Origin: an uncultured virus (IMG/VR IMGVR_UViG_3300031994_000078)
Taxonomy: Duplodnaviria; Heunggongvirae; Uroviricota; Caudoviricetes
Reading direction: 5' to 3' (one strand)
Virus record (IMG/VR): IMGVR_UViG_3300031994_000078
Location: 1-64,000 of that record
DNA length: 64,000 nt
Shown here: positions 5,494 to 55,935 of the stretch, in pieces
How the letters are laid out: each line of letters begins with the position of its first letter
How positions within the stretch are numbered: the first letter of the stretch is position 1
Position numbers and translations under genes: made by a program
Notes under the pieces: generated by a model
The model's input: only the letters and a program-made list of their open reading frames with translations
Told to the model about the DNA's origin: nothing
The model's database searches: none

Positions 5494-5514
5494 ATTATGA
5501 TTATTTTGTCAAGG
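5494..5514 (-). promoter_or_regulatory. Compact late-promoter-like motif CCTTGACA-N5-ATCATAAT
   Basis: ccttgaca aaata atcataat; one of 8 copies. Confidence 0.7.
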
Positions 5515-5537
5515 ATGGTTTTTGAAGATTTACAATA

Positions 5538-6122
5538 TCATCTGTTTCCAACAATTCCTGCAGCACGAGCTCTGCAATTCTGTATTATTTTAATATCATC
5601 AACATTATCGACACCAAATTCAATGTTGGAATCCAAAAACCAAACACCGTAAATATACCAGGTTTTTGTTAATAACTGATCGCTACTTGTTTTATCTTCA
5701 TCATCAGGGCAAATTAAATTTATTTTTATTAATAAAGGTCTTGTCTGTTTCGATATATCTAAACTATCATCTACATCTGAATAAAATTCATCTGATACCA
5801 TTGAATCATAAAGAACAATTCTATCTAAAGACAAATCATAGCCAGGTAACCCAGGATAAGATTCTACCGGTCTACCTGCAGTTTTATAATCAAGTTCTCT
5901 CCAAATATTTAATTGTCTTTCATTTGTAATCTCTAAATTTTGGATTGCACCAATCTGTTTTCCATTAGCAGCAGCTTCAACAAGTCTATTATATAATTCT
6001 GTAGGTTTTGTAAAATCTGTACCTGTAAAATTAAATGGCACACTATATATTTCTATATAGGCTTTGTATGCTGTTTTTAAACCCTTTATTAGACTGTTTT
6101 TATAATCTCCAGTAACTGCCAT
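5538..6122 (-). CDS. Tail tube protein (paralog 1)
   Basis: First structural gene after the sheath (one endonuclease gene in between). IGAIQNLEITNER...RELD...GRPVESYPG motif. Confidence 0.65.
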   Translation of the reverse strand: MAVTGDYKNSLIKGLKTAYKAYIEIYSVPFNFTGTDFTKPTELYNRLVEAAANGKQIGAIQNLEITNERQLNIWRELDYKTAGRPVESYPGLPGYDLSLDRIVLYDSMVSDEFYSDVDDSLDISKQTRPLLIKINLICPDDEDKTSSDQLLTKTWYIYGVWFLDSNIEFGVDNVDDIKIIQNCRARAAGIVGNR

Positions 6123-6134
6123 ATATTATCCTCC

Positions 6135-7388
6135 TTAATTAATTTTTCTAATCCAATCTTCAACTTCCTCTATATTCCAAAATATCTTGTAATTCAATTT
6201 ATTCTTTTTAAATGTTTCTAATTTTCTCGCATCTAAATCTGTCCAAACATAGATTGCAGTTCGAAAGAACTTGCTTTTTTTAGATTTAACTTGCCAACTG
6301 CTCAATATATTAAGATGTTCTAAATTATTCTTATCAAAAGATTCTTTTCCGTGTGTCCAATGCCCATTATATTCAATATATAAATCTAGGCTCTTAATAT
6401 AAAAATCACATTGATAAGGATATAATTCATTTTTATATTGTCTAATAATATCTTCTTTACCAAACTTAGTTAATAATAGTTGATACGTTTTTTCTTCAAA
6501 TTTAGATTTATTATATGTATTATTTTGCTTCTTAGTACTCCATTGTTTCTCTAAGATTATAGCTTTATGTTCTTTATAGAAATCCCTATATTCTTGAGTT
6601 TGTGTATAATTTTCTACACCATATCTTTCTAGGTTTGTTTTGCGCTGCTTTTCATTAATCTTTTCCACATCTAATTTATATTTCTTTGATTTCTGAAAAC
6701 TCGTTGCTCCAAACTTATCTAAACAGGTCTGCTTTACCTTATCTTTATATTCTTTGGTTTGTGAATAATAATCTACACCATACTTATCTTTACATGTCTG
6801 GTTTGATTTTTTAATATAGTCGTCTGTCTGCGTGTAATGTTTTTTTCCGAAATTCTCCAAGTTTGTTAATTCTCTTTGCTGTTGAATCAAATATTTATTG
6901 TCCTGCATATATTTTCTATGCTGATCTGATTGAGAATAATATTCAGTTCCATACTTCTCTAAGCATGTCTGTTTATATTTATCTTTATAATCTTGTGTTT
7001 TTAAATAACTATCTACACCATATTTATTTAAACATGTTTGTTTTATTTTATCTCGACATTCTTTTGTTTTTGCATAACTTGTAGTATTATATTTTCTTAA
7101 ACAAGTTTGTTTAACTTTATTTACATGTTCTTGTGATTTATTCATACAACTCATTGAACAATATGTTTGATATCCACCATGCGTACGTTTAAATTTAATA
7201 ATCTTTCCACAAGTTTTACATTTGAATACTTTATCAAAAGAAATATCATGTTTAATTCTATAACATAATTCTTTTATGGATAACTTATAAAAAATTGCTG
7301 TAGCTTCAACTTCTTTCGTTATGTATTTTTTTATAACTTTGTTATAAAATTGTTTATGACTTTTTATATACTTAACTAATTCTTCCAT
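6135..7388 (-). CDS. Free-standing homing-type endonuclease with 23-aa repeats and PD-(D/E)XK/Vsr-like domain
   Basis: CKTCG/YCSMSC Zn ribbon, 7 repeats, YPYQCDFYIKSLDLYIEYNGHWTH. Confidence 0.7.
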   Translation of the reverse strand: MEELVKYIKSHKQFYNKVIKKYITKEVEATAIFYKLSIKELCYRIKHDISFDKVFKCKTCGKIIKFKRTHGGYQTYCSMSCMNKSQEHVNKVKQTCLRKYNTTSYAKTKECRDKIKQTCLNKYGVDSYLKTQDYKDKYKQTCLEKYGTEYYSQSDQHRKYMQDNKYLIQQQRELTNLENFGKKHYTQTDDYIKKSNQTCKDKYGVDYYSQTKEYKDKVKQTCLDKFGATSFQKSKKYKLDVEKINEKQRKTNLERYGVENYTQTQEYRDFYKEHKAIILEKQWSTKKQNNTYNKSKFEEKTYQLLLTKFGKEDIIRQYKNELYPYQCDFYIKSLDLYIEYNGHWTHGKESFDKNNLEHLNILSSWQVKSKKSKFFRTAIYVWTDLDARKLETFKKNKLNYKIFWNIEEVEDWIRKIN

Positions 7389-7389
7389 C

Positions 7390-7475
7390 TCTATACTCCT
7401 ATAGATTAACTCAATTTTTATATTTACGGCAGGGTAGTGAGTTGCTACCTTTTCGGTTGATCTGACCTAGCCGTA
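7390..7475 (-). ncRNA. Structured leader RNA, copy B
   Basis: TACGGC-TA-GGT(7)ACC-GAAAA-GGTAG-CAACTCA-CTACC-CT-GCCGTA...TGAGTT-AA-TCTATA-GGAG-TATAGA-G-ATG. Confidence 0.75.
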
Positions 7476-7488
7476 TTTATTTTTAATA

Positions 7489-9543
7489 TTAAGCGTTTTG
7501 GAAAGTTACTCCGAATGTTACTAAAATGTAGTTAACATCAGGTGTTGGATATATTCTAAATGATACATTAATTTGATTTGGATAATTTTGATCTTGCGCA
7601 ATTACTAAGTTCGTATACGAATAAATATCGTTGTTTGCTAGGAAACTTGAAAGTATAGTATTAACTGTAGCTGTCATTTCTGATATTGTAGCTGCTCCAA
7701 CAAATCTTGTATTTATATATGCTTTATCTAAAGCAAGTCTTAATGTATTTGATATAACGTCTTTTATTTTTGTAATCTTAATTTCAGATTTTACATAATC
7801 ACCTGTAGATGTTGAGAGTGCATGTCTTATTTTTGCTACTGATGTTCCTTCTGCGCCTTCAAGAACTAAACATCCATAAGATGCTAATACATTCTTTTCT
7901 TCTCTTGTATACCTATCATTTACAGTAACATTCGATAATGTTTTACCTGTTATAGGTTCACCACAAGTAAAGTTATTATTACAGATAATACCAGCAATAG
8001 CTGCTGCAGCATACATACCATTAGCAACTGCTACTGTTCCTGTATCTAACGTAACCGATACTTGACCTGGTGTTACATAAACAACTCTTGCAGAATTTGC
8101 AGACGCAGCATCTTTTTTATAAGTTTCAATTGCGGTATCATAATCTTCCGTTTCAATTAAAGCGTTATTTGAAACAATCGCAATTCTTTCTTTTCTTTCA
8201 AGAGTTGAACTCATATTCTCAACATGTGTTTTGCACATACTTATAATCTGAGCCATCGTTATACTGTTATCAGGATCGTTCTCAATTTCAAACGGTGATA
8301 TCATAGGCAATATACAATATGCATTTATTTTAGTAGCTTGTCTAAGAGCAGTAGATAATCCAGCTGCATCTATAAGTCCAGTTGTTTCATTAACTTCAGG
8401 CTGAATACAATAGAAAACTCTTGCACCATTATCATAAGCAACTTGTGCACCTGCAGAAATTGTATTCTCAGCAGAAGGCTCACCATAAACAGAATAAATA
8501 CTTGAGAGTCTTGTATAAGATTTTGGTTCTCTATCTGCAGTATTTTTTGCTACTGTATAACTAACTGTGATTTTATACTTCCCATCTGGACCTTCAACTG
8601 GCATATCCCCATCTGGAGCTTTCCATAATAATACAGAATTTTCTACTGCAAAAAAATCTTTCTCTGAATTATCATAAACTCTACTACTTATTGCATCTAC
8701 AGCTTCAGAAGGTGCTACTACAATTTCTGGTTGCAATTGTGCAGAATAATAAGTAGCATTAGGATCTACAATTTTCCAATTCGTATTTAAATAATTTATA
8801 TTTGCTTCACTAGGTGAAGTATGATCTTTTATACATTCATAAAATAAAGCATTTAAATATATAAAATCTCCAACAACATAATCTGTTTCAGGAGTCCATA
8901 CTTTATAATGTATCGTTGTTTCTTCTGTATCAGTACTTATCCAATAATCAAATATAGCTTCATCTACTCCGTCTTCTAAAACACTAGCATTTTCATCTAA
9001 CCATGGAGTTACTAAACTACTTACTGCTACATCTTCTGTAATCTCAGAAGCGTTAGCTTCTAACCAATCAGCAACAGGTTCGGTAACTGTACCTGCAGTT
9101 GTAACACTATAATATTTATCATTATAAAATAATATATCACCTACTTCACAAGTAGTTCCATCTTCAGGATCTATTGCTGCTGGGATAGTTCCTTCTGAAT
9201 TAACAATATAATAACTTTCTCCAAAACTTATTACTTGTGATTGACTATAAAACTCTCCTGGTATAGCTTGTGCAGCTTCAGGTGTACTCGTTGTTGTAAC
9301 TTTATAATAAGTATCATTGTAATAAACTATAGAACCTGCTTCATATTCTGTACCAATTACAGGTACAGTAGGTCTTTCAATTGGAGGTAATAACTCCAAT
9401 AGTTCATTACTTATTGATTTTGTTTCTTTACCTTTACCGATAATACATACAGATAATAAACCTGTATTAACGTCTGTAGATATATCGTCATTGATTACGA
9501 CATATGTACCTGGCTCTGTGTAATTATTTGTAAATGATGGCAT
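7489..9543 (-). CDS. Contractile tail sheath protein with inserted CBM5/12-like repeats
   Basis: N-terminal YTEPGTYV motif; C-terminal sheath-type ...QINVSFRIYPTPDVNYILVTF; central Y..G..V.YN..YY repeats. Confidence 0.85.
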   Translation of the reverse strand: MPSFTNNYTEPGTYVVINDDISTDVNTGLLSVCIIGKGKETKSISNELLELLPPIERPTVPVIGTEYEAGSIVYYNDTYYKVTTTSTPEAAQAIPGEFYSQSQVISFGESYYIVNSEGTIPAAIDPEDGTTCEVGDILFYNDKYYSVTTAGTVTEPVADWLEANASEITEDVAVSSLVTPWLDENASVLEDGVDEAIFDYWISTDTEETTIHYKVWTPETDYVVGDFIYLNALFYECIKDHTSPSEANINYLNTNWKIVDPNATYYSAQLQPEIVVAPSEAVDAISSRVYDNSEKDFFAVENSVLLWKAPDGDMPVEGPDGKYKITVSYTVAKNTADREPKSYTRLSSIYSVYGEPSAENTISAGAQVAYDNGARVFYCIQPEVNETTGLIDAAGLSTALRQATKINAYCILPMISPFEIENDPDNSITMAQIISMCKTHVENMSSTLERKERIAIVSNNALIETEDYDTAIETYKKDAASANSARVVYVTPGQVSVTLDTGTVAVANGMYAAAAIAGIICNNNFTCGEPITGKTLSNVTVNDRYTREEKNVLASYGCLVLEGAEGTSVAKIRHALSTSTGDYVKSEIKITKIKDVISNTLRLALDKAYINTRFVGAATISEMTATVNTILSSFLANNDIYSYTNLVIAQDQNYPNQINVSFRIYPTPDVNYILVTFGVTFQNA

Positions 9544-9558: not shown

Positions 9559-9765
9559 TTAATAAATTTTTATTATTCTAATTAATTTTTTTCCTGCATA
9601 TTCTTTAACTTGCTTTGTATAAGCTACAACCTTGATCTCATTTGTTTTCAAATTAAAGTCTTTATAACATAAATCTCCAAACGTAATATTTTGTATTAAC
9701 GCTTGTTTAACAGTAGGTTGTATTGTAGAAACAGACTCAACCACTTTACTTTTCCTTCTAACCAT
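9559..9765 (-). CDS. Small hypothetical virion-cluster protein (start revised to MVRRKSK)
   Basis: GGAGGAG RBS before the ATG at 9765; overlaps the IscB stop. Confidence 0.55.
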   Translation of the reverse strand: MVRRKSKVVESVSTIQPTVKQALIQNITFGDLCYKDFNLKTNEIKVVAYTKQVKEYAGKKLIRIIKIY

Positions 9766-11020
9766 TACTCTCCTCCGTATAAAAATTGCCAAAATTAAAA
9801 TATTTATTTACCAATTTTAAACTGCATTCTTTTCGTTTATTGTTTTCCTTCACTACAACATACTTTAAATGACTCATTGTTATTGCATTGTATCTCTTAT
9901 TATTTATTACTACTAAATCTTTTGGTTGTATTTTATATCTTTGCTTTCTAATACCTGGCTTAAAACCTCTCCTGTTACACTGTAAAGATCTATTGTTTCT
10001 ATGTTTTTGTTTTAATTCTATAGGTTTCACTCTGTTTTGAACACTACCACCTGCTATACAAAAAGCATCGTTATAATGTGTTTTCTTTAACCCTAATTCT
10101 AGTCTTTGCTGCTTCGTTATATATCCAAATGTTTCGTACATATCAGGTATATCTTTTTGAAATCTTTTATGTATAATTGACATAAATGTATTTGATTTAT
10201 ACTCTTTACTACTTTTTCTGATACTAAATTTATTTTTATGTAAATCTTTATGACATTTACTGCATAAAGTTATTAGATTGTCTGGTCTATCAGTACCACC
10301 CTGACTTCTAAATTTTATGTGATGAACTTCTAATCTTGTGTTTTGTTTACCGCAATGCTGACAAGTTCTTTTATCTCTTGTTAATACATATTGTTTTACA
10401 TTCTCAAACTCCAATTGTTTTCCTTGTTGATATTCTTTACCTTTAATATTAAGATTTTGTATTTTTTGTATATCAAAATTTGCTGTTTCTATTATCACAT
10501 TATTGGTAGGAAGTATTAATTTAATTCGTTTTATAAGCTCTAAATGTGTTTGATAACGTCTCTCTATAGAAGGTGGTAACCAACCAACATGTCTTTTCCT
10601 ATTATTAAATCTAGATTCTCTATACCAATGATGCCTACATCTTCTTCCTTTTCTATACAACTTTCTCTCTAATAATCTCATTTTAGTTTTATTATCCAAA
10701 ACCAAAGTACCACTTATTAGCTCTTTCTTACTACTTACCGCACTAAACCCAATGTTCTCATAACCGCTATCAATACCTAGTGTAACTTCTTGTTTACAGT
10801 CTCTCGTTTGAACCAACATCTGAATAACAAAGAAAGGATATGTTTTAACTATTCTTGCTAAACCTTTCTTTATCAATCGTTTAGCTTTACAAGGTGTTGT
10901 TGGCATTAAAGGTTGCCCTTTTACATTGAGGACGAAAACATAAGTTTTCCTCTCAATCCTGTTAGGCTCAGGTAGATTCACATCGGAGTTGTTACAAGTC
11001 AGAGTATCTCTTCTACACAC
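9758..11020 (-). CDS. iscB: IscB RNA-guided endonuclease (IS200/IS605 OMEGA)
   Basis: PLMP motif, RuvC-I GIDSG, Arg-rich bridge helix, RuvC-II IIETANFD, HNH (CQHC...EVHH...NLITLCSKCH), RuvC-III KTHYNDA. Start codon uncertain. Confidence 0.93.
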   Translation of the reverse strand: MCRRDTLTCNNSDVNLPEPNRIERKTYVFVLNVKGQPLMPTTPCKAKRLIKKGLARIVKTYPFFVIQMLVQTRDCKQEVTLGIDSGYENIGFSAVSSKKELISGTLVLDNKTKMRLLERKLYRKGRRCRHHWYRESRFNNRKRHVGWLPPSIERRYQTHLELIKRIKLILPTNNVIIETANFDIQKIQNLNIKGKEYQQGKQLEFENVKQYVLTRDKRTCQHCGKQNTRLEVHHIKFRSQGGTDRPDNLITLCSKCHKDLHKNKFSIRKSSKEYKSNTFMSIIHKRFQKDIPDMYETFGYITKQQRLELGLKKTHYNDAFCIAGGSVQNRVKPIELKQKHRNNRSLQCNRRGFKPGIRKQRYKIQPKDLVVINNKRYNAITMSHLKYVVVKENNKRKECSLKLVNKYFNFGNFYTEESNG

Positions 11021-11201
11021 TGTGCCTTTAGGCTCGTTTTAATGTAGAAGTTATAAAGCTACGAACTTGTGAAGCATCCGTAGGTATGTTCTTTTTCTTT
11101 CCTTGTAACTGCTGTTTTAACATTACTGTTATAACCTCCTAATCAGCTCTTTCGTTGTAATTCTCATTACAAACCGATAACTTTAATTATCGGTAGCTGA
11201 C
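10950..11201 (-). ncRNA. omegaRNA (HEARO-like) scaffold of IscB
   Basis: Begins GTCAGCTACC followed by hairpin CCGATAA/TTATCGG. Contains TACCTACGGATGCTTCACAAGTTCGTAGC and AACAACTCCGATGTGAA segments typical of HEARO RNAs. 3' boundary approximate. Confidence 0.8.
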
Positions 11202-15186: not shown

Positions 15187-15207
15187 ATTATGATAAAATT
15201 GTCAAGG
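15187..15207 (-). promoter_or_regulatory. Compact late-promoter-like motif
   Basis: ccttgaca atttt atcataat. Confidence 0.7.
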
Positions 15208-25136: not shown

Positions 25137-25157
25137 ATTATGATATAAATGTCAAGG
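25137..25157 (-). promoter_or_regulatory. Compact late-promoter-like motif
   Basis: ccttgaca tttat atcataat. Confidence 0.7.
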
Positions 25158-30579: not shown

Positions 30580-30600
30580 AATATGATAAAAATGTCAAGG
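30580..30600 (-). promoter_or_regulatory. Compact late-promoter-like motif
   Basis: ccttgaca ttttt atcatatt. Confidence 0.7.
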
Positions 30601-32886: not shown

Positions 32887-32924
32887 AAAAAAAAAAGCTA
32901 CCGAGGAATCCTCGGTAGCTTTTT
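32887..32924 (-). terminator. Intrinsic terminator after the major capsid gene (possibly bidirectional)
   Basis: AGCTACCGAGG-ATT-CCTCGGTAGCT stem followed by about T10. Confidence 0.9.
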
Positions 32925-36543: not shown

Positions 36544-36564
36544 AATATGATATTTTTGTCAAGG
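36544..36564 (-). promoter_or_regulatory. Compact late-promoter-like motif
   Basis: ccttgaca aaaat atcatatt. Confidence 0.7.
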
Positions 36565-37825: not shown

Positions 37826-37837
37826 TTCTCCTTTATT

Positions 37838-39952: not shown

Positions 39953-39969
39953 TTTAAATCTTCCTTAAT

Positions 39970-40161
39970 TTAATTTTCATTTTCTAATTTTTTCATTTTT
40001 TCAATATATTCATTTACCTTAGGTTTTATACCGTTTAATAAAGCATATTGTATATTACTTATATCTATATTTGCATCGATATTATTTTTATTTAATTCCT
40101 GAGATAAGTAGTATACACGCTTTTCAATATCATCTATTATATATAGTAAATCATTTTGCAT
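39970..40161 (-). CDS. Small hypothetical protein (likely start MQNDLL)
   Basis: ORF overlapping the end of the upstream gene; start uncertain. Confidence 0.4.
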   Translation of the reverse strand: MQNDLLYIIDDIEKRVYYLSQELNKNNIDANIDISNIQYALLNGIKPKVNEYIEKMKKLENEN

Positions 40162-40333
40162 TATTCTTTTCCTGTTCTTCTTTCCAAAGATTCTCATTAC
40201 CTTCAAATGTACCATTTCCTAATTCACCTGTTGGTAATACTTCCATTACTTGATTATCTTCTAAACTTTTGTTAGAACTATTATCTATCTCATTTGATTT
40301 ATTAACTTCTGAAAAAATCAACCATCTAGACAT
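40151..40333 (-). CDS. Small protein with MSRWLIFS leader
   Basis: TAATG coupling to the upstream gene; shared N-terminal motif. Confidence 0.5.
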   Translation of the reverse strand: MSRWLIFSEVNKSNEIDNSSNKSLEDNQVMEVLPTGELGNGTFEGNENLWKEEQEKNNAK

Positions 40334-41637: not shown

Positions 41638-41959
41638 CTATGATATCTGCTTCATCAATTTCATGTATCATAGAACTACCTTGACAAACAACACCATATT
41701 TTAAATTTGCCCTTCTTTCCATAATTGTTGCTTGGTGAAGCATTGTATCACCTGTATCTATATAAACATTGTCACCTTCTTTATATGCCCAAGCTCCTCC
41801 AGCTTCTAATGCATCTCTTACGGATACTTCTCTAGCAGAAGCAACTCTACCTAAAACTTTATTACCGTTCTCATCTTCTACAACTTCCCAAGTATTATCT
41901 CCTGCTTCATCAAATTCTGCAAATAAATTAAATCTCGCTTCCTTTTTTATATCTTCCAT
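41615..41959 (-). CDS. Hypothetical protein (SH3-like C-terminus)
   Basis: 114 aa, GGAGAGG RBS. Confidence 0.5.
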   Translation of the reverse strand: MEDIKKEARFNLFAEFDEAGDNTWEVVEDENGNKVLGRVASAREVSVRDALEAGGAWAYKEGDNVYIDTGDTMLHQATIMERRANLKYGVVCQGSSMIHEIDEADIIDVDENLF

Positions 41960-41969
41960 AATTCCTCTC

Positions 41970-43616
41970 CTATAAATTTCCTATATATTTATTATACTCA
42001 TCAAACGTATTTTTAAAACCATTATAAAAGTTTTTATAATACCATTCATATAACTTTATAATAGTTGTCTTTACATCTATTATTTCTGAATCTTCTAAAA
42101 TACTTTCTTCTTTAGAAACATCTGGTATTTCATTTAATACATTTATTTGCTGAATAACTTCAGTATTAACTTTATTTAAAAACGATAATGCTTCTTCTGT
42201 ATTAAAAACAAAATCAATTGAACCATTATTTGTTAAATCTATTTCTTTATTAGGTATAGTCTTTAATTCAGAATCGCATATTATTGCTGGACTAATTAAC
42301 TTAATTATACCACTATATAAACTTGTTAAAGGCTTTTGAACTTTATCTCTAATATCTGCTTTTGTTGCTGAATTTTTTGTATAATAATCTAATGCTTGTA
42401 ATAAATCAAATACTTCTTTTGAATTAATAAATCTATCTGTACCTGACAAAGCAATAGATAAAATACCAAAATTGATAATATCTTTAACCTTGCTTTCATA
42501 ATTTTCAGGTAGCTCACTTCTAAGCTTAAATTGTGATAAATAATTACTTAAATTTTTTAAAATATTATTAATATTTTTATCACAATACTTTGACATGTTT
42601 CCTAATCCAAAATTATTATAAATAGTTTCTAATAAAAATTGCCTTGCAGACTGATTATCCCCTGACATATCTTCAGTCATTTTATATTTCTTAAAAAATT
42701 CTTTACTGGCTATAGTATCTAAAAGATCCTTATAAAACTCTTTTGTTATTTCTGTATCATCACTAATATCTTCTTTACTAGTGGATTTAAATAAATTTAA
42801 AATTGTATTTTTTAATTCAAATAATAATGTATATAAACTAATTAATACATCAAAATTTACTTGAAATTTATCCTCATCATCCCTTACAGATTTAAATATA
42901 TTTCCTAAATAACTACTTAAATCCTGATTACTTCTAAAACTTTCTTCATAATCTTGAAAACTTTTTTGATCATTTAACTTACTAATTATTTGTGTATTAA
43001 TAATATTCATATAGTTAGTTAAGTTATCTGAAAGTTTCTCATCAATTAAAGATTCTTTTTTAAATGTATTTTCTATAATATTTCTAATTGATCTTATAAA
43101 ATCACTATATAAAATATTAAAATCTTTAATTAAATTAATATCTTCATTACTACTTAATGCAGAATTTTGTAAGTACTCGTACATTGAAAAATACTTATAA
43201 AGTACATCACTAGCTTTTAATTTATCTAATAAGTAATTAACGTTATCTACTGATTTAACTTGTGACGACTCTTTAAGTTTAATTAACCCTTCTATCAATT
43301 TATTCAAAATCTCATCAGATTTATCACTATCTTTACTTACATCCTTTAATTTTTTATCTATAGATGTTAACAAGCTATTAACTGTTTCACAATCATTTTC
43401 TAAATCACGTAATGTATTAGATTTTTTAATATACTCTAATAATCTAAAGCATGCATCTATATCTTTTAAAATATCTTTTCTTATAGCTTTATTACGTTTT
43501 TCAGTAAACTCTTTAATAGATTCTTGTTCCTTTTCTCTTTCTTCACGTTCTTCTTCAGACTCATTTAAAATATCTGCTATTATAAACTTATTTAAAAAAT
43601 TATTAAATAAACCCAT
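41970..43616 (-). CDS. Hypothetical helical protein, probable internal virion protein
   Basis: 548 aa, AGGAG RBS, downstream of the promoter motif. Confidence 0.5.
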   Translation of the reverse strand: MGLFNNFLNKFIIADILNESEEEREEREKEQESIKEFTEKRNKAIRKDILKDIDACFRLLEYIKKSNTLRDLENDCETVNSLLTSIDKKLKDVSKDSDKSDEILNKLIEGLIKLKESSQVKSVDNVNYLLDKLKASDVLYKYFSMYEYLQNSALSSNEDINLIKDFNILYSDFIRSIRNIIENTFKKESLIDEKLSDNLTNYMNIINTQIISKLNDQKSFQDYEESFRSNQDLSSYLGNIFKSVRDDEDKFQVNFDVLISLYTLLFELKNTILNLFKSTSKEDISDDTEITKEFYKDLLDTIASKEFFKKYKMTEDMSGDNQSARQFLLETIYNNFGLGNMSKYCDKNINNILKNLSNYLSQFKLRSELPENYESKVKDIINFGILSIALSGTDRFINSKEVFDLLQALDYYTKNSATKADIRDKVQKPLTSLYSGIIKLISPAIICDSELKTIPNKEIDLTNNGSIDFVFNTEEALSFLNKVNTEVIQQINVLNEIPDVSKEESILEDSEIIDVKTTIIKLYEWYYKNFYNGFKNTFDEYNKYIGNL

Positions 43617-43652
43617 ATAAAAAACTCCTAATAAATATTTAAAAATCTAGAT

Positions 43653-43673
43653 ATTATGATAAAAATGTCAAGG
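43653..43673 (-). promoter_or_regulatory. Compact late-promoter-like motif
   Basis: ccttgaca ttttt atcataat. Confidence 0.7.
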
Positions 43674-43925
43674 CTATACAATTGCGTTTTTAGTATGTCC
43701 TTGTCCGTTTTCTAAAGGCTTAAAGTTAGTTTTATCACTAACTTCACTTACAGGATTTTTACCATCACCTTCAAAACCTTGGTGATTTAATTGAACACCT
43801 TTTCCTTCAGTAGGATGTTCTGATGTACTATTCTGCTTTTGCTCAACAATCTTTACTTCATTTTGAAATGTATTTGGATCTTGATCTACACCTTTCATAT
43901 CATTTGCAATTAACCATCTAGACAT
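43674..43925 (-). CDS. Small protein with MSRWLIA leader
   Basis: 83 aa; shared N-terminal motif. Confidence 0.5.
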   Translation of the reverse strand: MSRWLIANDMKGVDQDPNTFQNEVKIVEQKQNSTSEHPTEGKGVQLNHQGFEGDGKNPVSEVSDKTNFKPLENGQGHTKNAIV

Positions 43926-43928
43926 TTT

Positions 43929-46900
43929 CTACCCCTGTTGACCTATTATTGTTCCACCTATAGAACTTAGATTATCTTGTATATAAATTCCACCTTCCAT
44001 ATTAATATTATTATTCAACGCTTTCTTTGTAAGTAAAATCTTTATCGCACCTACTACTGTATCAGCTAAATCTTTTGAATTATGTACAAATACTCCCGAA
44101 GCTAAAGCAAAATTATTAAATCCAGGAACTGTTATATCGTATACTGGTGTATCTGAAACCTGAATTAATTCTACACTTATAACTTTATGATTGTAATCTT
44201 TCATATTTTTATGTAATAAATAATCTAAATTATATTTATGTATATAATATTTGAGCGTCTGAACTGGACATTTAAATAACTTAGATATATCGCTTATATT
44301 TAACCCTTCTTTAAAACTTTCCACTAAATTCTGTTTAAAATTTATATCTACATATCTTTCAGAAAGAGCATGCACAACCCTATTATTATTACCTTTTGGC
44401 TTAATCCCTAATTGCTGTGCTAAATTTTTATAAGAAACACAGTGTTTAAAATCTAAATTTTTATCTTTTAATAGTGTGTTTAAGTCATTATGTCTTAATT
44501 GTTTAGCCTGTTCATAATATATTTTACTTGCATCACGTAGCTGTGTTTTTGATAATTCAAGTCTTCTTGTTTTACCTTCTTTTGATTTCCAATATATATC
44601 ATTTGTGGAAATTTTTTTATGTAAACCTAACTCTTTATTCTTTCTAAATGTTTCTTTCCCTTTGTCTATAATTTGTTGTTTCTCTTCAACTGTACGCGCG
44701 TTCCAAATTGCTTTACGCTTTTCTACTCCAATAAAAGCATTTAATTTACCTTCTTCTGAATTTCTTTTTATCATAGATTTCTGTACAGCTAATTTACGAG
44801 AATTTTTACCTTCTTCTGTTTGGTAAAAAACTTTTAATGCTTCAGCTCTTTTCTGTATACGTTCTGGATTTAAGTTATCACGTTTCAATCTAGTTAATGT
44901 ACGCTGTTTAACTTTCTGCAAACTTAATTTGCATAACTGTTTGTGTCGCTCTGCATGCTCACTTCTAGTTAATAATTCTAAATTTTCAGGTGTATTGTTT
45001 CTTGGATTTAAATCATAGTGATGTATAACTTCATTAGTAATATCATAATCACCATTAAAATATTTATAAACCATTTTATGTGTTGCCTGTGATTTATTTG
45101 TTTTATTATCTTTTAAAATCTCATAGTTTCCCCAATAACTACATCTTAACGGCATTATTGAATCATCTTTCTTTAAATCTTTAGCTTGTATATATGTACC
45201 ATTACGTAACATAATTAGATGATTTGGTGTACATGTAAAACTTTTATTATTATCTAAAATTACTTTACATAATGTATTAACTTTTTTAGTTTCATGTGCA
45301 TTATATGCTTTAGCTGGCACTATTGTGCCATCAGACTTGCATGCGTATACCCAAAATTCTTTATCTGAACCTGCATCTGCAAGTTCTTTCATAGTTTTAC
45401 ATGTACCATTTAATAGTTTAATTTGAGTATCACCTGTAAAACAACCGTCACTTGGATGATCTACACGTTTTGCTCTTGTTAATATTAATCTTCTAAACTC
45501 TTCCTGAAGTCTTTCACTAGGTTGTAAAGAAACTCTACCTTCATACATCATTTCTTTTGCATGTTTATAATCTGCAAAATTAAGTCTATATTCTTCAGAA
45601 GGTATATGTAATTCATTTAACTGTTCAATAAGTAATGCACTATTCCATTGGTCAAAATAAACTCTATTTATATGTATATGCTTACTTATATCAACTAAAA
45701 ACTGTTTCACATTGTGCATTGAAACTTCTAATTTCTTTTCTGGATTTGGTACCCAAGATAACATTAAATCTTGTATTGCTTTCAATCCTGTAGTTGTAGA
45801 CTCTGTATGGAATATAGATAAAGCTGCAGAGTCACTTCTTAATCCTAAATCGATTGTTATTGTATAATCTATATCTGTTCTACTTATATTATAATTAGTA
45901 ATTAATTTTTTTACATAACCATCTTCTTCATAATCTTGTGTGTCTACTAATGGTAGTCTGTTTGGATCTATACAAGCCCTAATCTTTTCAGGTTTCTCAA
46001 TAAAGATACTTGATATAGATGACGGCATACACATATACTTCGTCTTAGCATTTTCTGGATCTGCTTTAAACTCAGACTGGTATTCCAGCGGAATCTTATG
46101 TCCTTGAAACTCAAAATACTTTTGAGGGTAATCTTTAAAACAATGTGCTGGTTTTACTTCCCAAGTACATGCTTTATCACAAAACCAATGTAACTCTGAC
46201 TGTCCTTGCTCATAAAGCTTAAGTATTGCATCACCTTCATAACGTGTGAAACTTAATGCTACTCCTTTATGTCTATTTCCAAAACGAGAAATTGCAGAAG
46301 ATTTCATCATATTAAATATTGTTATACCTTTATTTGTAGCAGGGGTTTCATCAAAACCTGCAATTTCATCACAAACAAAAAACAATATATTCTTACCTTC
46401 CTGTGAGTTAGCCCCTGAATGTCCTGAAATAGCTCTTATATTATTTGGAAATATCGCTGCATTCTGTGTTATTGTAACTGTATTTAATATATCATCTATT
46501 CTTGCCTGTCCAAGAAATGACCCAGAAAACTTTACAGGATATTTATCTCGCAACCATTGCCAACGTATTAATCTTTGTTTAAACTTCTCAAAGAAAACAC
46601 CTGAAGCCTGTTGAGCATTAACTGCTACATTAAGTAAGTCTATAGCTTCACCTTCAGGTAAATTAAGAAACTTCTGCGGTGACCTTAAACAAAGTAATAC
46701 ATATACTGCATAACACATTAATAATGATGTTATTGTATCTTTACCTGCACCTTTTCCATATGCTAAAATCGCTGTTGTATTCCCATTATCAAATATCTTT
46801 TTTGGGTCATTACCAAATAAAAAATCAGATGGAGCATATTGACGCTCGCTAAGAGGAACAAAATTCATGTGATTTTTTGAAATTACAAAGTCTCTAAAAG

Positions 46901-47012
46901 AAATTGGATCTTCGTTCCAAACTTTATTATCTGTTTTAAAAATTTTATCTATATCACCGAGTGCAGAATTACATAACTGCTGCCTAATCGATGCAGAACT
47001 TCTATTTGTCAT
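43929..47012 (-). CDS. terL: Terminase large subunit, intein-containing
   Basis: Walker A GKGAGKD, Walker B FVCDE, nuclease IDLG..SD, YFDQWNS, and DHP..G|SKDLAD split by the intein. Confidence 0.92.
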   Translation of the reverse strand: MTNRSSASIRQQLCNSALGDIDKIFKTDNKVWNEDPISFRDFVISKNHMNFVPLSERQYAPSDFLFGNDPKKIFDNGNTTAILAYGKGAGKDTITSLLMCYAVYVLLCLRSPQKFLNLPEGEAIDLLNVAVNAQQASGVFFEKFKQRLIRWQWLRDKYPVKFSGSFLGQARIDDILNTVTITQNAAIFPNNIRAISGHSGANSQEGKNILFFVCDEIAGFDETPATNKGITIFNMMKSSAISRFGNRHKGVALSFTRYEGDAILKLYEQGQSELHWFCDKACTWEVKPAHCFKDYPQKYFEFQGHKIPLEYQSEFKADPENAKTKYMCMPSSISSIFIEKPEKIRACIDPNRLPLVDTQDYEEDGYVKKLITNYNISRTDIDYTITIDLGLRSDSAALSIFHTESTTTGLKAIQDLMLSWVPNPEKKLEVSMHNVKQFLVDISKHIHINRVYFDQWNSALLIEQLNELHIPSEEYRLNFADYKHAKEMMYEGRVSLQPSERLQEEFRRLILTRAKRVDHPSDGCFTGDTQIKLLNGTCKTMKELADAGSDKEFWVYACKSDGTIVPAKAYNAHETKKVNTLCKVILDNNKSFTCTPNHLIMLRNGTYIQAKDLKKDDSIMPLRCSYWGNYEILKDNKTNKSQATHKMVYKYFNGDYDITNEVIHHYDLNPRNNTPENLELLTRSEHAERHKQLCKLSLQKVKQRTLTRLKRDNLNPERIQKRAEALKVFYQTEEGKNSRKLAVQKSMIKRNSEEGKLNAFIGVEKRKAIWNARTVEEKQQIIDKGKETFRKNKELGLHKKISTNDIYWKSKEGKTRRLELSKTQLRDASKIYYEQAKQLRHNDLNTLLKDKNLDFKHCVSYKNLAQQLGIKPKGNNNRVVHALSERYVDINFKQNLVESFKEGLNISDISKLFKCPVQTLKYYIHKYNLDYLLHKNMKDYNHKVISVELIQVSDTPVYDITVPGFNNFALASGVFVHNSKDLADTVVGAIKILLTKKALNNNINMEGGIYIQDNLSSIGGTIIGQQG
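44079..45443 (-). mobile_element. Intein (455 aa) carrying an HNH homing endonuclease
   Basis: Starts CFTGDT, block B TCTPNHLI, ends PVYDITV...VFVHN followed by Ser. Internal HKMV...IHHYDLNPRNNTPENL HNH motif. Confidence 0.93.
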
Positions 47013-47701
47013 TATTCGTTTTCCTTTATTATTTTTTCATCATTCATTGACTCTTCTTGTGCTACTTCCATATTTAAACTACTTGATTCATTCATTAAAG
47101 CTTGTTTAAATAGTCTACTAAATTGTTCATACCTATCTGGACAAATTTGTAAAACAATATTAGAAACGGTTTGTAACAGAAACTTTGTTTCTTTTTTTAC
47201 AAGCTCATCAAGTTTAGCTTGCTGTGAAGCTAAATCTGCTGTAAGCTGTACAATTGTCTTAACATAATTTCTCGCTTCAGATATATAAGCAAGTATTTGT
47301 TTTTCAACCATCATATCAGGAACTCTATTACTTGCTTGCTGATGTTCTAATGCAGATTCTCTTAATAAACACTTACCCATTAAACCTTGTAATACTTTTA
47401 CATTACTATAATTAAGCTCTTGTCTACCTTTAATTTGTGTAAGTAATCTATCAAGCTCTGTCAATCCTTCATTAAACTCTCTGCTAATTTCTGTTTTATT
47501 TGTCTGTAAAGTAATTGCAGTATTTTTTGATTGATACTGTTTTCTATATAAAGATATTGCGTCTAACGATGGTACTGTTACCACGTTACTGTAATTATCT
47601 TTTATAAATTGTTGTATAACACGTACAGATGCTCCACTATCAATCTTTTGATTAAGTGCTTCTAAAACATCTGCAGGGTATTGAAATATATGTGAAGCCA
47701 T
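47012..47701 (-). CDS. Probable terminase small subunit
   Basis: N-terminal HTH-like region plus helices; TAATG-coupled directly upstream of terL. Confidence 0.5.
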   Translation of the reverse strand: MASHIFQYPADVLEALNQKIDSGASVRVIQQFIKDNYSNVVTVPSLDAISLYRKQYQSKNTAITLQTNKTEISREFNEGLTELDRLLTQIKGRQELNYSNVKVLQGLMGKCLLRESALEHQQASNRVPDMMVEKQILAYISEARNYVKTIVQLTADLASQQAKLDELVKKETKFLLQTVSNIVLQICPDRYEQFSRLFKQALMNESSSLNMEVAQEESMNDEKIIKENE

Positions 47702-47704
47702 AAA

Positions 47705-48496
47705 TTAAAAATTTCCTCCAATAATTCCTGGATGTCCTTTTCCTCTTGTTTTAAATTGTTGTTTAGCGTCTTTAACACAATAGTTTAAACGTTGTAAGAA
47801 ATCATTATCACTATACTTTTTTAAAAACAAATTAATTTTATCAACAAATTCAGATTTTTTTTCATCAGTAATGTCTGAATATGGAGTACTTAAAAAATAA
47901 TTATATAGTTTTCTTATATCAAAAGCATCGTTTAAAAATTCGTTAGGATCAACTAAAAGTTCTTCAATAAATGCAATCATAGCAGTTGGACTTTGTCTAT
48001 AAATTTGTATAAAATTTGTTAAAAAAGTTGAAAACGTATATAAGTCATTTAAATCAGGATTGATTGAATCTATAAAACTATTAATATTCCCTGAATTTCT
48101 AATCATTTGTACAAGAGCTGTAGCTATTTCAGATTTTAATAAACTTAAATTGTTATATTCATCAAGCGCACCTTGTGGAATTTTTTCAATAATCGTATCT
48201 GTAACTATATTAATTGCATTTAATAAGTCCTGTGTATCGATAGGATTCTTATAAATTTCTATTAAATCTTCAATAGAATCTTTCACTTCAGTATCTTTAG
48301 TTAATAACTCTTTATAAAAATCAACCCACTTAAATCTAGATTGAAATTCTTTTTGTTCCTTTTCTTCTAATTCTTTTTCAATATTTGTTTCATCTTTAGC
48401 CTGTTCTTCTGAAATCTCTGTTAATGATTTTGTCTCACCAAAAGAATCATCACTTCCTGAGCTAAAAATTTTTTTGAATTTATCAAATATAGACAT
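47705..48496 (-). CDS. Hypothetical protein, first gene of the late cluster
   Basis: 263 aa, AAGGAG RBS. Confidence 0.55.
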   Translation of the reverse strand: MSIFDKFKKIFSSGSDDSFGETKSLTEISEEQAKDETNIEKELEEKEQKEFQSRFKWVDFYKELLTKDTEVKDSIEDLIEIYKNPIDTQDLLNAINIVTDTIIEKIPQGALDEYNNLSLLKSEIATALVQMIRNSGNINSFIDSINPDLNDLYTFSTFLTNFIQIYRQSPTAMIAFIEELLVDPNEFLNDAFDIRKLYNYFLSTPYSDITDEKKSEFVDKINLFLKKYSDNDFLQRLNYCVKDAKQQFKTRGKGHPGIIGGNF

Positions 48497-48537
48497 AAAA
48501 TACTCTCCTTATATTAAAAACTATCTTAAAAACTGTA

Positions 48538-48558
48538 ATTATGATAGTTTTGTCAAGG
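48538..48558 (-). promoter_or_regulatory. Compact late-promoter-like motif at the head of the late region
   Basis: ccttgaca aaact atcataat. Confidence 0.7.
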
Positions 48559-48563
48559 GGAAA

Positions 48564-49055
48564 TTATATTTCAATGCCTAATAACTTTTTATATTGATTT
48601 TTGAATAAAATTGATTCTTGGTCAGTTTGCTTTGATATTTTATGATAAAAACTAGACACACAACAATGGACTGCCTGTCTACTTACACCTAATAACTTTG
48701 CAATTTGACTATATGATTTCCTTTGAATTATATATGATAACACTAACTTTTGATGTTCATTAGTATATTTATCTATATAATTTAAAATATTTATTAGTAA
48801 ATATCTATTTCTATCTAGATCTGTCATATATTTTTTTATTTTCATTTGTACTTTCTGAAGCTCTCTACATATAAAACTTTGCTCCATATCATATAATATA
48901 CCTAATTGTGTTTGATTTTTTTGAGAAGTTCTGTTATCTATTAAATGTTTATACCATGTAAATGTTTTTTTATCAAAGTAAAATAAAAACATTACTTCAA
49001 GTATATCAGAACTATTAGAAATATTCTCAACAGCTTGTTTGAACTCAGAAAACAT
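48564..49055 (-). CDS. Transcription factor with tandem sigma70 region-4-like HTH domains
   Basis: KNQTQLGILYDMEQSFICRELQKV and EHQKLVL...KSYSQIAKLLGVSRQAVH. Confidence 0.65.
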   Translation of the reverse strand: MFSEFKQAVENISNSSDILEVMFLFYFDKKTFTWYKHLIDNRTSQKNQTQLGILYDMEQSFICRELQKVQMKIKKYMTDLDRNRYLLINILNYIDKYTNEHQKLVLSYIIQRKSYSQIAKLLGVSRQAVHCCVSSFYHKISKQTDQESILFKNQYKKLLGIEI

Positions 49056-49064
49056 AAGCTCTCC

Positions 49065-49625
49065 TTACTCATCAATGTTTTGAATATCTAATATACTTGT
49101 TTTAATTTGGATTGTGTTTTGCCCCATATCAACTTCTAATGATACACGAGTACCGCTGACATCTACTACTTTAGCATTTAACCCATAGAAAGCACCAGAA
49201 TTTATACGGACAGTTGCTCCTTGTTGAAATACTACTTCTTTCTTTTTAGCATTATACTTATAAGCAACTTCTAAAGCTTGCTTAACTTCATGCTCAAAAA
49301 CCATACCTTTTAAAATTTGAGCACCATAAATATAATTAATTCTACTTTCTATTTCTTTTATATTTGTACTTTGTGGTCTAATTGCTATAAAGCCATATGT
49401 AAAATAGTTTGGTTTATCAATTGTTATTATTTGATTACTTCTTTCTTGCAAACGCTTCTTCTCTAAATGTGTTGGAAGCCACAAAAAATTATCATTATCA
49501 TATGCCTTCAATAAAGTGTTTATTTGACTTAACTTAACAAACGAATAAAAGTTTATAATATACCAACGATAATCTGAAACAGTTACTTGAGGGATTCTTT
49601 TAAATACTTCTGCGATAGTCCACAT
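49065..49625 (-). CDS. NusG-family paralog (NGN + KOW), possible antiterminator
   Basis: RWYII...LPT...PNYFTYGFI NGN-like region; KOW FQQGATVRINSGAFYGLNAKVVDV. Confidence 0.8.
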   Translation of the reverse strand: MWTIAEVFKRIPQVTVSDYRWYIINFYSFVKLSQINTLLKAYDNDNFLWLPTHLEKKRLQERSNQIITIDKPNYFTYGFIAIRPQSTNIKEIESRINYIYGAQILKGMVFEHEVKQALEVAYKYNAKKKEVVFQQGATVRINSGAFYGLNAKVVDVSGTRVSLEVDMGQNTIQIKTSILDIQNIDE

Positions 49626-50271
49626 TTTTGTACAAACTCCTCTTTATTATTTTTTGCTAAAAATTCATCAATATCGACATTTGATTGTAACTGTAAAATT
49701 TCTGTATTACCACCAAAACTATTTATAGTTTTAGCAACTCTTTCACTACCTTCCATTCCAGCTTTATCTGGATCTAAAAGTATTTTAAAATTCTTTGTAA
49801 ATCTCATTAGATAAGATACTTGTATATCTTTAATTGAACACCCACATAATGCAACAACATTTTTTATACCTACTTTATTTAAAGCAATTACTTCCCAATA
49901 ACCTTCAACAAGAATAACCTCATCCATTTCAATTATTGAGCTATAAGCTAAATTTAAACCAAATAATAATAAAGACTTTTTAAATCCTTTAACACCAATA
50001 AATTTTTGTTTTGCGTTTGGAGATAAATGTCTTGCTGCAAACGAAACAATATTATTATATAAATCAAAAATAGGTATAAGTATACAGTTATCATATATAC
50101 TTATATCTATTTTTTCTTCAAATAATTTATGCATAAACTGACAAAGCTTTTCAAATGTAGGTGAATTATTTACACCATATAATTGATTATTATAAAAATA
50201 ACCTAAACCAAATAAGGCTATTTGTGTATCATCTATATTTCTTTGGTGTAAATAATTCATCCCATAAGTCA

Positions 50272-50272
<1 letters not shown>
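49583..50272 (-). CDS. dnaG: DNA primase catalytic/TOPRIM domain (no Zn finger)
   Basis: IPIFD...SFAAR...KF; VILVEGYWE; VALCG; LLDPDKAG; DIDE. Confidence 0.85.
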
Positions 50273-52202
<1,930 letters not shown>

Positions 52203-52228: not shown

Positions 52229-52257
52229 ATTATATATAATTTAAAAAAATTTGTCAA
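52229..52257 (-). promoter_or_regulatory. sigma70-type promoter for the groES-groEL-dnaG-nusG-HTH operon
   Basis: TTGACA-N17-TATAAT, perfect consensus. Confidence 0.8.
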
Positions 52258-54716: not shown

Positions 54717-55090
54717 TATTTCTTATTTCTCCTTTTCTTTGTTACTTTAAATGCTTCTTTTATTACTTTAGGTTGTCTTTTTCTATGTTCTTTACTTATT
54801 CCTCTATTTAAAAACGACTCTGATGGTACATCTGTAAATACATCTGTCTTCACTACTTTCTTTTCTTGCGCTACACCTAAAATCTTCTTACGTAAATATG
54901 TTTGAATTTTGGAGCAAGCTTCTTTTTTAACAAAGGTGAAATAATACTCCTTTCCTAATAGTTTACGATTTTTGTAATAAGTTGTCAACTCCTGAAAACG
55001 CTTATCTTCGTCTAAGGTTTTCATATCATAATCTTCATTTACATAAACTACATAACCACGATTTAATTTCCTTACATCAATAATACGCAT
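54716..55090 (-). CDS. Hypothetical basic protein
   Basis: 124 aa, TAATG-coupled on both sides. Confidence 0.55.
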   Translation of the reverse strand: MRIIDVRKLNRGYVVYVNEDYDMKTLDEDKRFQELTTYYKNRKLLGKEYYFTFVKKEACSKIQTYLRKKILGVAQEKKVVKTDVFTDVPSESFLNRGISKEHRKRQPKVIKEAFKVTKKRRNKK

Positions 55091-55836
55091 TATATACCTC
55101 CAACTTTAGATTCATTACCTTGTTTATAAATTGTTATTAAATTTGGCGCTTTCTCTTTTATACTATTATTATGTGTAATTAATATTATTTGTCTATTATT
55201 CTTTTCACTAAATTGTCTTAAAAACTCACCAAACGCACTTTGATACTCTGCAGATATATTTGCTCCAACCTCATCTAATATAACTGGTCCTTGTATCTTT
55301 GGCTTACAAAACTCTAAAAATATTAAACGTAAACAAACAGATAAAACGTTTTTAACTCCACCAGCTTCAGATTGTAATATATCAGACTCACCAGCATCTG
55401 ATACTGTATAAAAATATGTATCTACACCCTTCTTTGTTTCTTCCATATGAATCTTAAACTTTATATTTGTATCTTGTAATATATCTTGCAAAGCAACTGT
55501 ACACAAATTTTCTATTTTAGATAGCTGTGTTTGTGATATTTTAGATAAAGCTTTTATCAAAATTTTTTCATTATCTAAATCATATTTAACAGATACTAAC
55601 TCTTTCTGTTTTGCTTCTAGTTCTTGCAATTGTGTATTATATATATTAAACTCTCCTTCACGTTTAGCTATATCTAAAAGAATATCTTCTATATATTTTT
55701 TTAATTTATAAACTTTATCTAAAACCTTTTTATCTACACAAAAAGGTTCTTTAGGTGTTACATAAGGTTGCTTAACTTCAAAATATTCTTCAAGAGCCTT
55801 TTTTGTTCTAGGCATTTTTGGCACTTTATTTGGCAC
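55090..55836 (-). CDS. sbcC: SbcC/Rad50-like ATPase, C-terminal half
   Basis: Signature SEAGG, Walker B VILDE, H-loop IILITH. Confidence 0.85.
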   Translation of the reverse strand: MPNKVPKMPRTKKALEEYFEVKQPYVTPKEPFCVDKKVLDKVYKLKKYIEDILLDIAKREGEFNIYNTQLQELEAKQKELVSVKYDLDNEKILIKALSKISQTQLSKIENLCTVALQDILQDTNIKFKIHMEETKKGVDTYFYTVSDAGESDILQSEAGGVKNVLSVCLRLIFLEFCKPKIQGPVILDEVGANISAEYQSAFGEFLRQFSEKNNRQIILITHNNSIKEKAPNLITIYKQGNESKVGGI

Positions 55837-55879
55837 TTTACACCTCTACATAATATATAAAATATACTATTTTAAATAA

Positions 55880-55908
55880 ATTATATATAAATAATCTCAT
55901 TTTGTCAA
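55880..55908 (-). promoter_or_regulatory. sigma70-type promoter inside the TnpB cassette, driving sbcC-C/polA
   Basis: TTGACA-N17-TATAAT, perfect consensus. Confidence 0.8.
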
Positions 55909-55914
55909 TAATAA

Positions 55915-55935
55915 CCTTGACAAAAGTATCATAAT
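55915..55935 (+). promoter_or_regulatory. Compact late-promoter-like motif pointing at tnpB
   Basis: ccttgaca aaagt atcataat; the only + strand copy, in front of the only + strand gene. Confidence 0.7.

Follow-up and report, generated by a model that had tools for sequence, protein, structure and literature searches.

A compact two-block signal at operon heads of an uncultured ruminant-gut phage: a putative late promoter and its candidate reader

The stretch of DNA analysed here, 64,000 nucleotides (nt) long and called the window in the following, comprises bases 1-64000 of a 73-kb viral record (IMG/VR IMGVR_UViG_3300031994_000078). It harbours a recurrent motif, CCTTGACA-N5-ATCATAWT, in which two words of the standard bacterial promoter, TTGACA and the -10-like CATAWT, are only 7 bp apart. 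The best explanation as a whole, and one that in our judgement has a little better than an even chance, is that the motif works as a late promoter and is read by P0001, a small phage protein encoded just where the early genes give way to the late ones. We infer from the sequence that the host sigma factor alone should be unable to read it.

All eight copies stand where the initial annotation of the window had placed them: at 5494, 15187, 25137, 30580, 36544, 43653 and 48538 on the minus strand and at 55915 on the plus strand. The full pattern has these eight exact matches in the window and none in 100 dinucleotide-preserving shuffles. The shorter TTGACA-N7-CATAWT, with one mismatch allowed, yields four extra sites in the window, which is chance level, since the shuffles contain on average 2.1 matches of any kind. 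A ninth copy is found past the end of the window, at 69323 (+) of the same 73-kb record.

A pattern scan of IMG/VR returned three records with multiple copies, G001 (300,445 bp), G002 (73 kb) and G003 (61 kb). The window's 73-kb record recurs in the first of them at 76514-149567, differing by 5 mismatches. The 11 copies of G001 all fall within 14.6-146 kb; G002 has 7 exact copies and one with a single mismatch, and G003 has 6. The 25 aligned sites of the three records, which amount to about a dozen independent places since G002 and G003 share several near-identical sites, give the consensus cCCTTGACA-N4-TATCATAWT. Information is limited to positions -3 to +18, and each flank carries 0.0-0.7 bit per position. 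At orthologous sites the motif is kept while the N4 bases and the flanks vary. In G001 the sites are all-or-none: 11 are within 0-1 mismatch of the 17 specified bases, and 4 have 2-3 mismatches, as against 2-8 in each of 10 shuffles.

The spacing, which had been called invariant, is indeed so. When CTTGACA-Nx-CATAWT was searched in the three records with x from 0 to 20, x was 7 in 25 of 26 matches; the sole exception (x = 8) is intragenic. The spacer is thus 7 bp at all 25 motif sites, not the 16-18 bp of canonical sigma-70 promoters. Being 10 bp under 17, it leaves the helical phase of the two blocks almost unchanged. Nor is there a consistent -10 element at the canonical distance, as had also been claimed: in a consensus scan at 16-18 bp only one of the eight window copies reaches 10 of 12 matches. 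It is the 43653 copy, with the lone passable hexamer TAGATT at 16-bp spacing.

The copies are placed as operon heads would be. All 11 in G001 are intergenic, though open reading frames (ORFs) cover 95% of its sequence; the gene calls are crude longest-ORF calls, and the one apparent overlap of a copy with an ORF is due to an over-extended TTG start. In 10 of the 11 a co-oriented start codon follows 21-106 nt downstream. Every copy in the window points in the direction of its downstream gene, seven of them end 28-52 nt before the start codon, and the eighth, at 5494, precedes a structured leader of 106 nt before the start of a homing-endonuclease gene; orientation, distances and leader are as the initial annotation described them. 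The copies, with lengths of proteins in amino acids (aa), are the following.

5494..5514, minus strand: motif copy CCTTGACAAAATAATCATAAT, followed by the 106-nt leader, a DUF7487 homing-endonuclease gene and then tail-region genes
15187..15207, minus strand: motif copy 28 nt before an ATG; the operon extends to the tail sheath gene
25137..25157, minus strand: motif copy 28 nt before the first ORF (168 aa) of an operon with a 1417-aa and a 748-aa protein
30580..30600, minus strand: motif copy heading an operon with an endolysin-like gene
36544..36564, minus strand: motif copy 36 nt before an operon whose last gene is that of the major head protein, followed by a strong terminator
43653..43673, minus strand: motif copy immediately next to the TAG stop of the upstream ORF and 36 nt before an operon with the genes of the portal and the head-maturation protease
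48538..48558, minus strand: first late motif copy, 5 nt past the stop of the P0001 gene and 41 nt before the packaging operon, which consists of a 263-aa ORF, a 229-aa ORF and an intein-bearing large terminase
55915..55935, plus strand: the window's sole plus-strand motif copy, with a TnpB (IS605 OrfB) gene beginning 52 nt further on
69323 of the 73-kb record (G001:145838), plus strand: motif copy heading a plus-strand block with another endolysin-like gene
G001:69716: motif copy heading baseplate and fibre genes
G001:14588, minus strand: motif copy followed by about 350 nt without ORF or Rfam match

The restriction to late genes that the initial annotation expected applies to most copies, not to all. 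Packaging, head, tail and lysis operons are headed by the motif, the genes behind it including those for terminase, portal, protease, major head protein, sheath, baseplate and endolysin. No copy is found in the early plus-strand block of G001 (15-61 kb, roughly 47 kb) nor in its replication cluster. Three of the 11 copies, however, head items that do not belong to the virion, namely the TnpB gene, the homing-endonuclease leader and the non-coding stretch behind G001:14588. The latter (L128 14230-14588, minus strand) is of higher G+C, has no ORF of at least 60 aa on its strand and no Rfam match, and may be a late-expressed non-coding RNA.

Early and replication-side genes are served differently. 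All six textbook TTGAC(A/T)-N17-TA(T/A)AAT promoters that had been set against the motif (26171, 31592, 32851, 52229, 55880 and 62169) were found, with 0-1 mismatch. They serve replication genes and three homing-endonuclease genes. One of them, at 55880-55908 on the minus strand, stands back to back with the plus-strand motif copy at 55915. A related observation comes from L128 8140-8170 (+), where CCTTGACA is combined with a TATAAT at canonical distance upstream of six tRNA genes (8449-9208: Ser, Gln, Thr, Asn, Met, Pro).

That the motif starts transcription is suggested by its relation to terminators and ribosome-binding sites. The terminator concerned in the window is this one.

32892..32924, minus strand: intrinsic terminator, a 15-pair stem with a T run after the major head protein gene, closing the operon begun at 36544

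Two genes, one for a homing endonuclease and one for a 308-aa protein, separate this terminator from the 30580 copy in the window, and each has its own canonical promoter. G002 and G003 are without these two genes, and there a hairpin of -24.1 kcal/mol with a T run comes just before the orthologous motif copy. A terminator followed by the motif is the layout of a new transcription unit. Further, the two copies on the plus strand, 55915 and 69323, each stand at the head of a plus-strand unit that points away from its minus-strand neighbours, so that they cannot depend on co-directional transcription from upstream.

The ribosome-binding sites tell where the transcript should begin. At 4 of the 25 sites, belonging to two gene groups, the Shine-Dalgarno sequence begins as close as 11, 12, 14 and 15 nt past the motif; the 25137 copy is the one with 14 nt. 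A canonical start, about 17 nt past CATAWT, would strip these genes of their ribosome-binding site, and the start must hence fall near CATAWT. A start about 35 nt from TTGACA, the case that the initial annotation had named as speaking against its proposal, is thereby ruled out for the genes in question. If CATAWT is taken as the -10 element, the start falls 5-9 nt past the motif and the Shine-Dalgarno sequence is retained at every site.

This bears directly on the most conservative view of the motif, according to which TTGACA is simply a host -35 element, TATCATAWT an activator site in the spacer, and the start lies about 17 nt past the motif. TTGACA is, after all, the perfect -35 consensus, AT-rich DNA is rich in TAnnnT, and the 43653 copy does have its TAGATT at 16 bp. 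Against these points stand the loss of the ribosome-binding site at the four sites just mentioned and the flanks, which hold no more than 0.0-0.7 bit per position where the -10 element would have to lie. Also, CC precedes TTGACA at 25 of 25 motif sites and at none of 7 canonical window promoters checked. We regard the canonical geometry as very improbable. The compact 7-bp class of late promoters, as proposed in the initial annotation, is supported by its fixed geometry, its placement at late operons, its co-orientation and its conservation in relatives.

The motif might, of course, act on a polymerase that is already under way, as a pause or loading site at which P0002, a NusG paralogue, with or without P0001, confers resistance to termination ahead of each long late operon. 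Precedents are ops, the site for RfaH, and the pause at lambda PR', where a -35-like and a -10-like element lie close together. Several facts would suit such a function: P0002 has UpxY, NusG and RfaH matches and is kept beside P0001 in a distant relative; the late genes form one co-directional array of 63 kb; several copies abut an upstream stop codon with no terminator between; and one RNA-library contig crosses a copy. Yet the copy in G002 and G003 follows directly on a strong terminator, where little read-through is expected, the plus-strand copies have no co-directional transcription upstream, and the upstream flanks of the 25 sites contain no conserved promoter from which the polymerase could come. 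We consider a pause site quite unlikely, and still much less credible is that the motif acts in RNA, as a processing site or a translational operator between cistrons. Every copy is leader-like and upstream of a ribosome-binding site, as an RNA signal should be, but pairing between the two blocks is impossible, a strong terminator precedes the motif in the relatives, and the halves of the motif correspond to the two hexamers of the DNA promoter consensus. We give the RNA-level function next to no credence.

A late promoter calls for a reader, and for that role the early operon next to the first late copy offers a candidate.

52229..52257, minus strand: canonical TTGACA-N17-TATAAT promoter of an operon running through GroEL, primase, NusG-like and P0001 genes
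49065..49625, minus strand: gene of P0002, 186 aa, a NusG paralogue with weak UpxY/NusG/RfaH matches and a KOW motif
48564..49055, minus strand: gene of P0001, 163 aa; C-terminal half with a predicted sigma region 4 fold, N-terminal half helical with a helix-turn-helix (HTH)-like unit

The P0001 gene is the last of the operon driven from 52229 and ends 5 nt before the 48538 copy. The order NusG-like gene, P0001 gene, motif is common to G002, L155 and L156. Six frames of G001 contain a single Sigma70_r4 match, P0001 (E-value 3e-4), and G002 likewise has just one, the orthologue of P0001. TIGR02937, the family of sigma70-ECF (extracytoplasmic function) factors, matches residues 87-131 with an E-value of 8e-7, below its cut-off. 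Sigma70_r4 or r4_2 match 6-7 of 10 members of the P0001 family, again below cut-off. PHROGs labelled 'RNA polymerase sigma factor' match 7 of the 10; P0001 itself has no PHROG at E <= 1e-5, and its weak PHROG matches bear this label or 'unknown'. With hhalign only region 4.2 aligns to the RpoE alignment (E 0.005), the nearest neighbours in a language model are viral Sigma70_r4 clusters, and the NCBIfam model 'positive control sigma-like factor' reaches an E-value of 0.04.

The predicted structure is in line with these matches. An initial AlphaFold2 (AF2) model based on 8 close homologues rendered the N-terminal half poorly, with a predicted local distance difference test (pLDDT) of 65, and was replaced by one built from 10 sequences (pLDDT 92, predicted template modelling score 0.83). 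In this model residues 85-157 align to region 4 of SigF, SigH, CnrH, SigD, SigR and primary sigmas, with Z 5.6-6.1 and a root mean square deviation of 1.7-2.5 A over 56-68 residues. Residues 24-81 give weaker matches of the HTH type, Z 4.5-5.2, among them homeodomains and the Mu C and Mor activators. Foldseek against the PDB returned nothing at E <= 0.001. By its predicted fold, then, P0001 possesses a sigma region 4 domain.

The N-terminal half is harder to place. PF04542 (Sigma70_r2) matches 0 of 10 family members at E <= 0.1, and the listed N-terminal fold matches contain no sigma-2 chain; that list is filled by the C-terminal domain. Residues 17-41 resemble, by eye, what we take to be the ECF pattern D..QE.F...W[LY]..[IL].. 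N, a likeness that no tool supports. An internal duplication of P0001 was considered as well and is not borne out by hhalign, in which the HTH-like segments of the two halves align only at E 0.07. A complex prediction of P0001 with residues 1-400 of B. subtilis beta-prime, run without controls, scored 0.00 and 0.00 and counts neither as support nor as counter-evidence.

The family is small. It comprises close homologues of 78-90% identity and six representatives at 29-52%. Scans of viral and metagenome contigs retrieved close relatives and one distant contig of 3.5 kb; a scan of genome contigs retrieved none. In a homologue of 31% identity (L157) the NusG-like neighbour is kept and the residues of the recognition helix differ, and the intergenic region downstream has no TTGACA...CATAWT. 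P0002, for its part, matches UpxY (E 2e-7), NusG (3e-5) and RfaH (3e-4), all below cut-off, and adjoins the P0001 family gene even in this relative.

Gene position, fold and occurrence taken together, P0001 is likely the reader of the motif. How it would do so can be imagined in two ways: P0001 is either a short-armed substitute of a sigma factor or an activator that sits on the spacer of a holoenzyme complex. The beta flap of a normal holoenzyme keeps region 4 at about -35, and a region-4-type domain one turn closer must consequently sit elsewhere. The activator is favoured because no region 2 was detected in P0001. A dedicated reader is favoured because all nine bases of block 2 are invariant, including positions that primary sigmas read loosely. 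That P0001 is a minimal initiation factor, alone or together with P0002, perhaps at the clamp-helix site of sigma region 2, is in our opinion rather unlikely. If it were true, a region-4-type domain would be placed one turn nearer to the -10 element than in any described holoenzyme of the sigma-70 family, and a '-24/-10' class of promoters would be made from ordinary -35 and -10 words.

The motif could be a late promoter all the same and be read by somebody else, by another early phage protein or by an alternative sigma factor of the host. The placement and conservation that speak for a promoter fit such a reader equally well, and the link between P0001 and the motif is one of gene position, fold and co-occurrence. 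Sporulation sigmas of Firmicutes recognise -10 elements beginning with CATA. On the other side, P0001 is the sole region-4-type match in six frames of G001, its gene lies exactly at the junction of early and late genes in four related records, and we know of no host sigma factor with a 7-bp spacer. We would therefore call another reader of the promoter doubtful.

More doubtful by far is a promoter of a phage-encoded RNA polymerase, for which we see only a slim chance. Promoters of phage polymerases are typically long and invariant, like the motif with its roughly 21 bp, and a 74-aa ORF (2108-2332) matches a PHROG 'RNA polymerase beta subunit' with an E-value of 7e-6. RNA_pol_Rpb2_6 and RNA_pol_Rpb1_2, however, are absent from six frames of G001, whereas 14 of 14 control genomes were positive, and neither the 74-aa ORF nor the neighbouring 537-aa ORF matches a solved polymerase. 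The T7-type polymerase family has no match in G001 either, in a search run without positive control. Finally, the large unannotated proteins that we noticed stand behind motif copies in late clusters and hence would be made too late.

We return to the late promoter with P0001 as its reader, against which several points have to be held. Every family match of P0001 is under its curated cut-off. Its fold matches have a Z of about 6, and values below about 8 are common for helical proteins. Sigma70_r2 (PF04542) is absent at E <= 1 from six frames of the three records, G001 included. The case for covariation of motif and factor consists of one distant relative with one intergenic region. Outside the window the family scans took in ORFs of 90 aa and more, leaving aside many small early ones, and another regulator could be the reader. 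Transcription offers further objections. Between the P0001 gene and the first late copy at 48538 there is no terminator, so that read-through from the early promoter could reach the packaging genes. RNA-library contigs (four runs, compared with window positions 30001-50000) cover the capsid operon, and one of them, from a relative of about 92% identity, runs across the 36544 copy; such contigs cannot show starts, strand or carry-over of DNA.

With these reservations, infection might proceed as follows. Host RNA polymerase with its primary sigma would first read the early genes, including those of P0001 and P0002, from TTGACA-N17-TATAAT promoters. The region-4-type domain of P0001 would then bind CCTTGACA, which is centred near -23 and would stand in for the -35 element, one helical turn nearer to the start; the N-terminal HTH-like unit may read the invariant TAT. 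CATAWT would serve as the -10 element of this late class, with the start a few bases downstream. In this way P0001 would steer the polymerase to the 11 copies that head packaging, head, tail and lysis operons, and P0002 may keep it processive across late operons of 5-12 kb.

As to the phage itself, G001 carries its core genes in duplicate: DNA polymerases, DnaB/primase pairs, recombinases, large terminases, proteases, major head proteins and portals. Relatives of the window's phage occur on contigs of 158-166 kb. We read G001 as two phage genomes joined, the window's phage being roughly the first 160 kb. The second part (about 160-300 kb) has neither the compact motif nor a Sigma70_r4 match. 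It has signals of its own: AAATTTTATATAATATATTATAAA occurs about 15 times before genes of replication and nucleotide metabolism (183-246 kb), and AATTTAAATTTAAAAA stands before at least 7 genes of the head/portal/tail region, 20-40 nt from the start codon (223-274 kb). The phage has 26-30% G+C and strong Shine-Dalgarno sites, encodes an anaerobic ribonucleotide reductase and occurs in gut runs of sheep and cattle. Among isolated phages the best match of its portal is that of Bacillus phage G, with 29% identity; a megablast of 20 kb against the phage collection found nothing.

Some neighbours of the motif copies deserve mention in their own right. At the 15187 copy the TGA within TTGACA (15202-15204, minus strand) is the stop codon of the upstream 134-aa ORF, so that coding sequence and signal overlap. 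G001 has four TnpB (IS605 OrfB) genes, at window 55988-57145 (+) and at G001 164317-165456, 190750-191937 and 251626-252780; the only one of the window's phage stands behind the compact motif, and likewise in the relative G002. The intein of the large terminase (window 43929-47012, minus strand) has an HNH endonuclease domain, as judged by Intein_splicing, Hint and HNH_3 matches. The early operon of P0001 also includes a GroEL-type chaperonin (window 50272-52202, minus strand; PHROG E 1e-131), which comes after a 109-aa ORF. The leaders of DUF7487 genes share a small hairpin with the loop CAACTCA, at window 5400-5490 (-) and 7400-7480 (-) and in G003 at about 41330-41430. Its stems are compensatory across the three copies (GAGTG/CACTC, GGTAG/CTACC and GGATG/CATCC), and it has no Rfam match at gathering score. 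Within the tail operon, at window 9758-11201 (-), an HNH endonuclease ORF of 420 aa is immediately preceded by a HEARO RNA (RF02033, 87 bits), which is an IscB-type OMEGA arrangement.

Time and again, late promoters of phages and their factors, such as T4 gp55, MotA/AsiA, the SPO1 sigmas and lambda Q, have revealed ways of rewiring bacterial RNA polymerase. The present signal reuses two standard promoter words at a distance that the normal geometry of the holoenzyme should not span. If confirmed, it would mean that a region-4-type domain can be positioned on promoter DNA in a new manner. AT-rich Firmicutes would gain a short, orthogonal pair of promoter and factor, and late operons in this lineage of uncultured ruminant-gut phages could be predicted from a sequence tag. 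A narrow literature search, supplementary data excluded, found no description of a TTGACA-N7-CATAAT promoter, and the literature matches to CCTTGACA together with 'phage' were unrelated primers only.

Compared with a canonical sigma-70/sigma-A promoter, the motif has the identical -35 hexamer; of the -10 consensus, the A and the last T are preserved in CATAWT. It differs in its spacer of 7 instead of 17 +/- 1 bp, in the invariant CC and TAT, and in the C at the first position of the -10 element. The middle promoters of T4, too, have in place of the -35 element an upstream box that is recognised by a phage factor and is nearer to a sigma-type -10 than a normal -35 would be. This MotA box has its centre at about -30 and a spacer of some 12 bp, and region 4 of the host sigma is remodelled by two proteins, MotA and AsiA. 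The box described here, by contrast, is centred near -23 and is itself TTGACA; the comparison is one of promoter layout. Sigma-54 promoters of the -24/-12 type likewise end near the start and are made up of two short conserved blocks with about one helical turn between them, but their GG/GC consensus is unrelated, and neither a sigma-54-like protein nor an enhancer-binding ATPase was seen in the phage.

Phage sigma factors such as T4 gp55, SPO1 gp28/gp34 and PBSX Xpf resemble P0001 in being small proteins that redirect the host core polymerase, and their promoters resemble the motif in forming a phage-specific, highly conserved class for middle or late genes. These factors have a recognisable region 2 or a promoter made of a -10 element only. 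P0001, in contrast, is without detectable region 2, and its putative promoter has two closely spaced blocks. The same group includes gp36 of phiEco32, a phage-encoded sigma factor according to the available text of PMC12276001 and PMC8948821. Its chain in the open complex, 9m7y_F, is among the fold matches of P0001, with Z 5.2.

The closest known kind is the Ltr superfamily, the late activators of Gram-positive phages. In the available text of PMC3753634 it comprises RinA, ArpU and the family II protein LtrA, the latter with a Sigma70_r4 region, and the genes lie just before terS. Like them, P0001 is a small phage protein with a region-4-like part whose gene is directly upstream of the packaging module, and like them it is proposed to switch on the late genes, which for Ltr means morphogenesis and lysis (PMC3753634, same text). 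Ltr, as described there (PMC3753634), acts on one promoter before terS in temperate phages, whereas here the signal occurs 11 times in a genome of about 160 kb. Moreover, the signal sequence and the fixed 7-bp geometry are defined here; this contrast with Ltr is by description. What is new with respect to the known late-promoter systems of phages is one signal at 11 operon heads with a defined geometry of two blocks.

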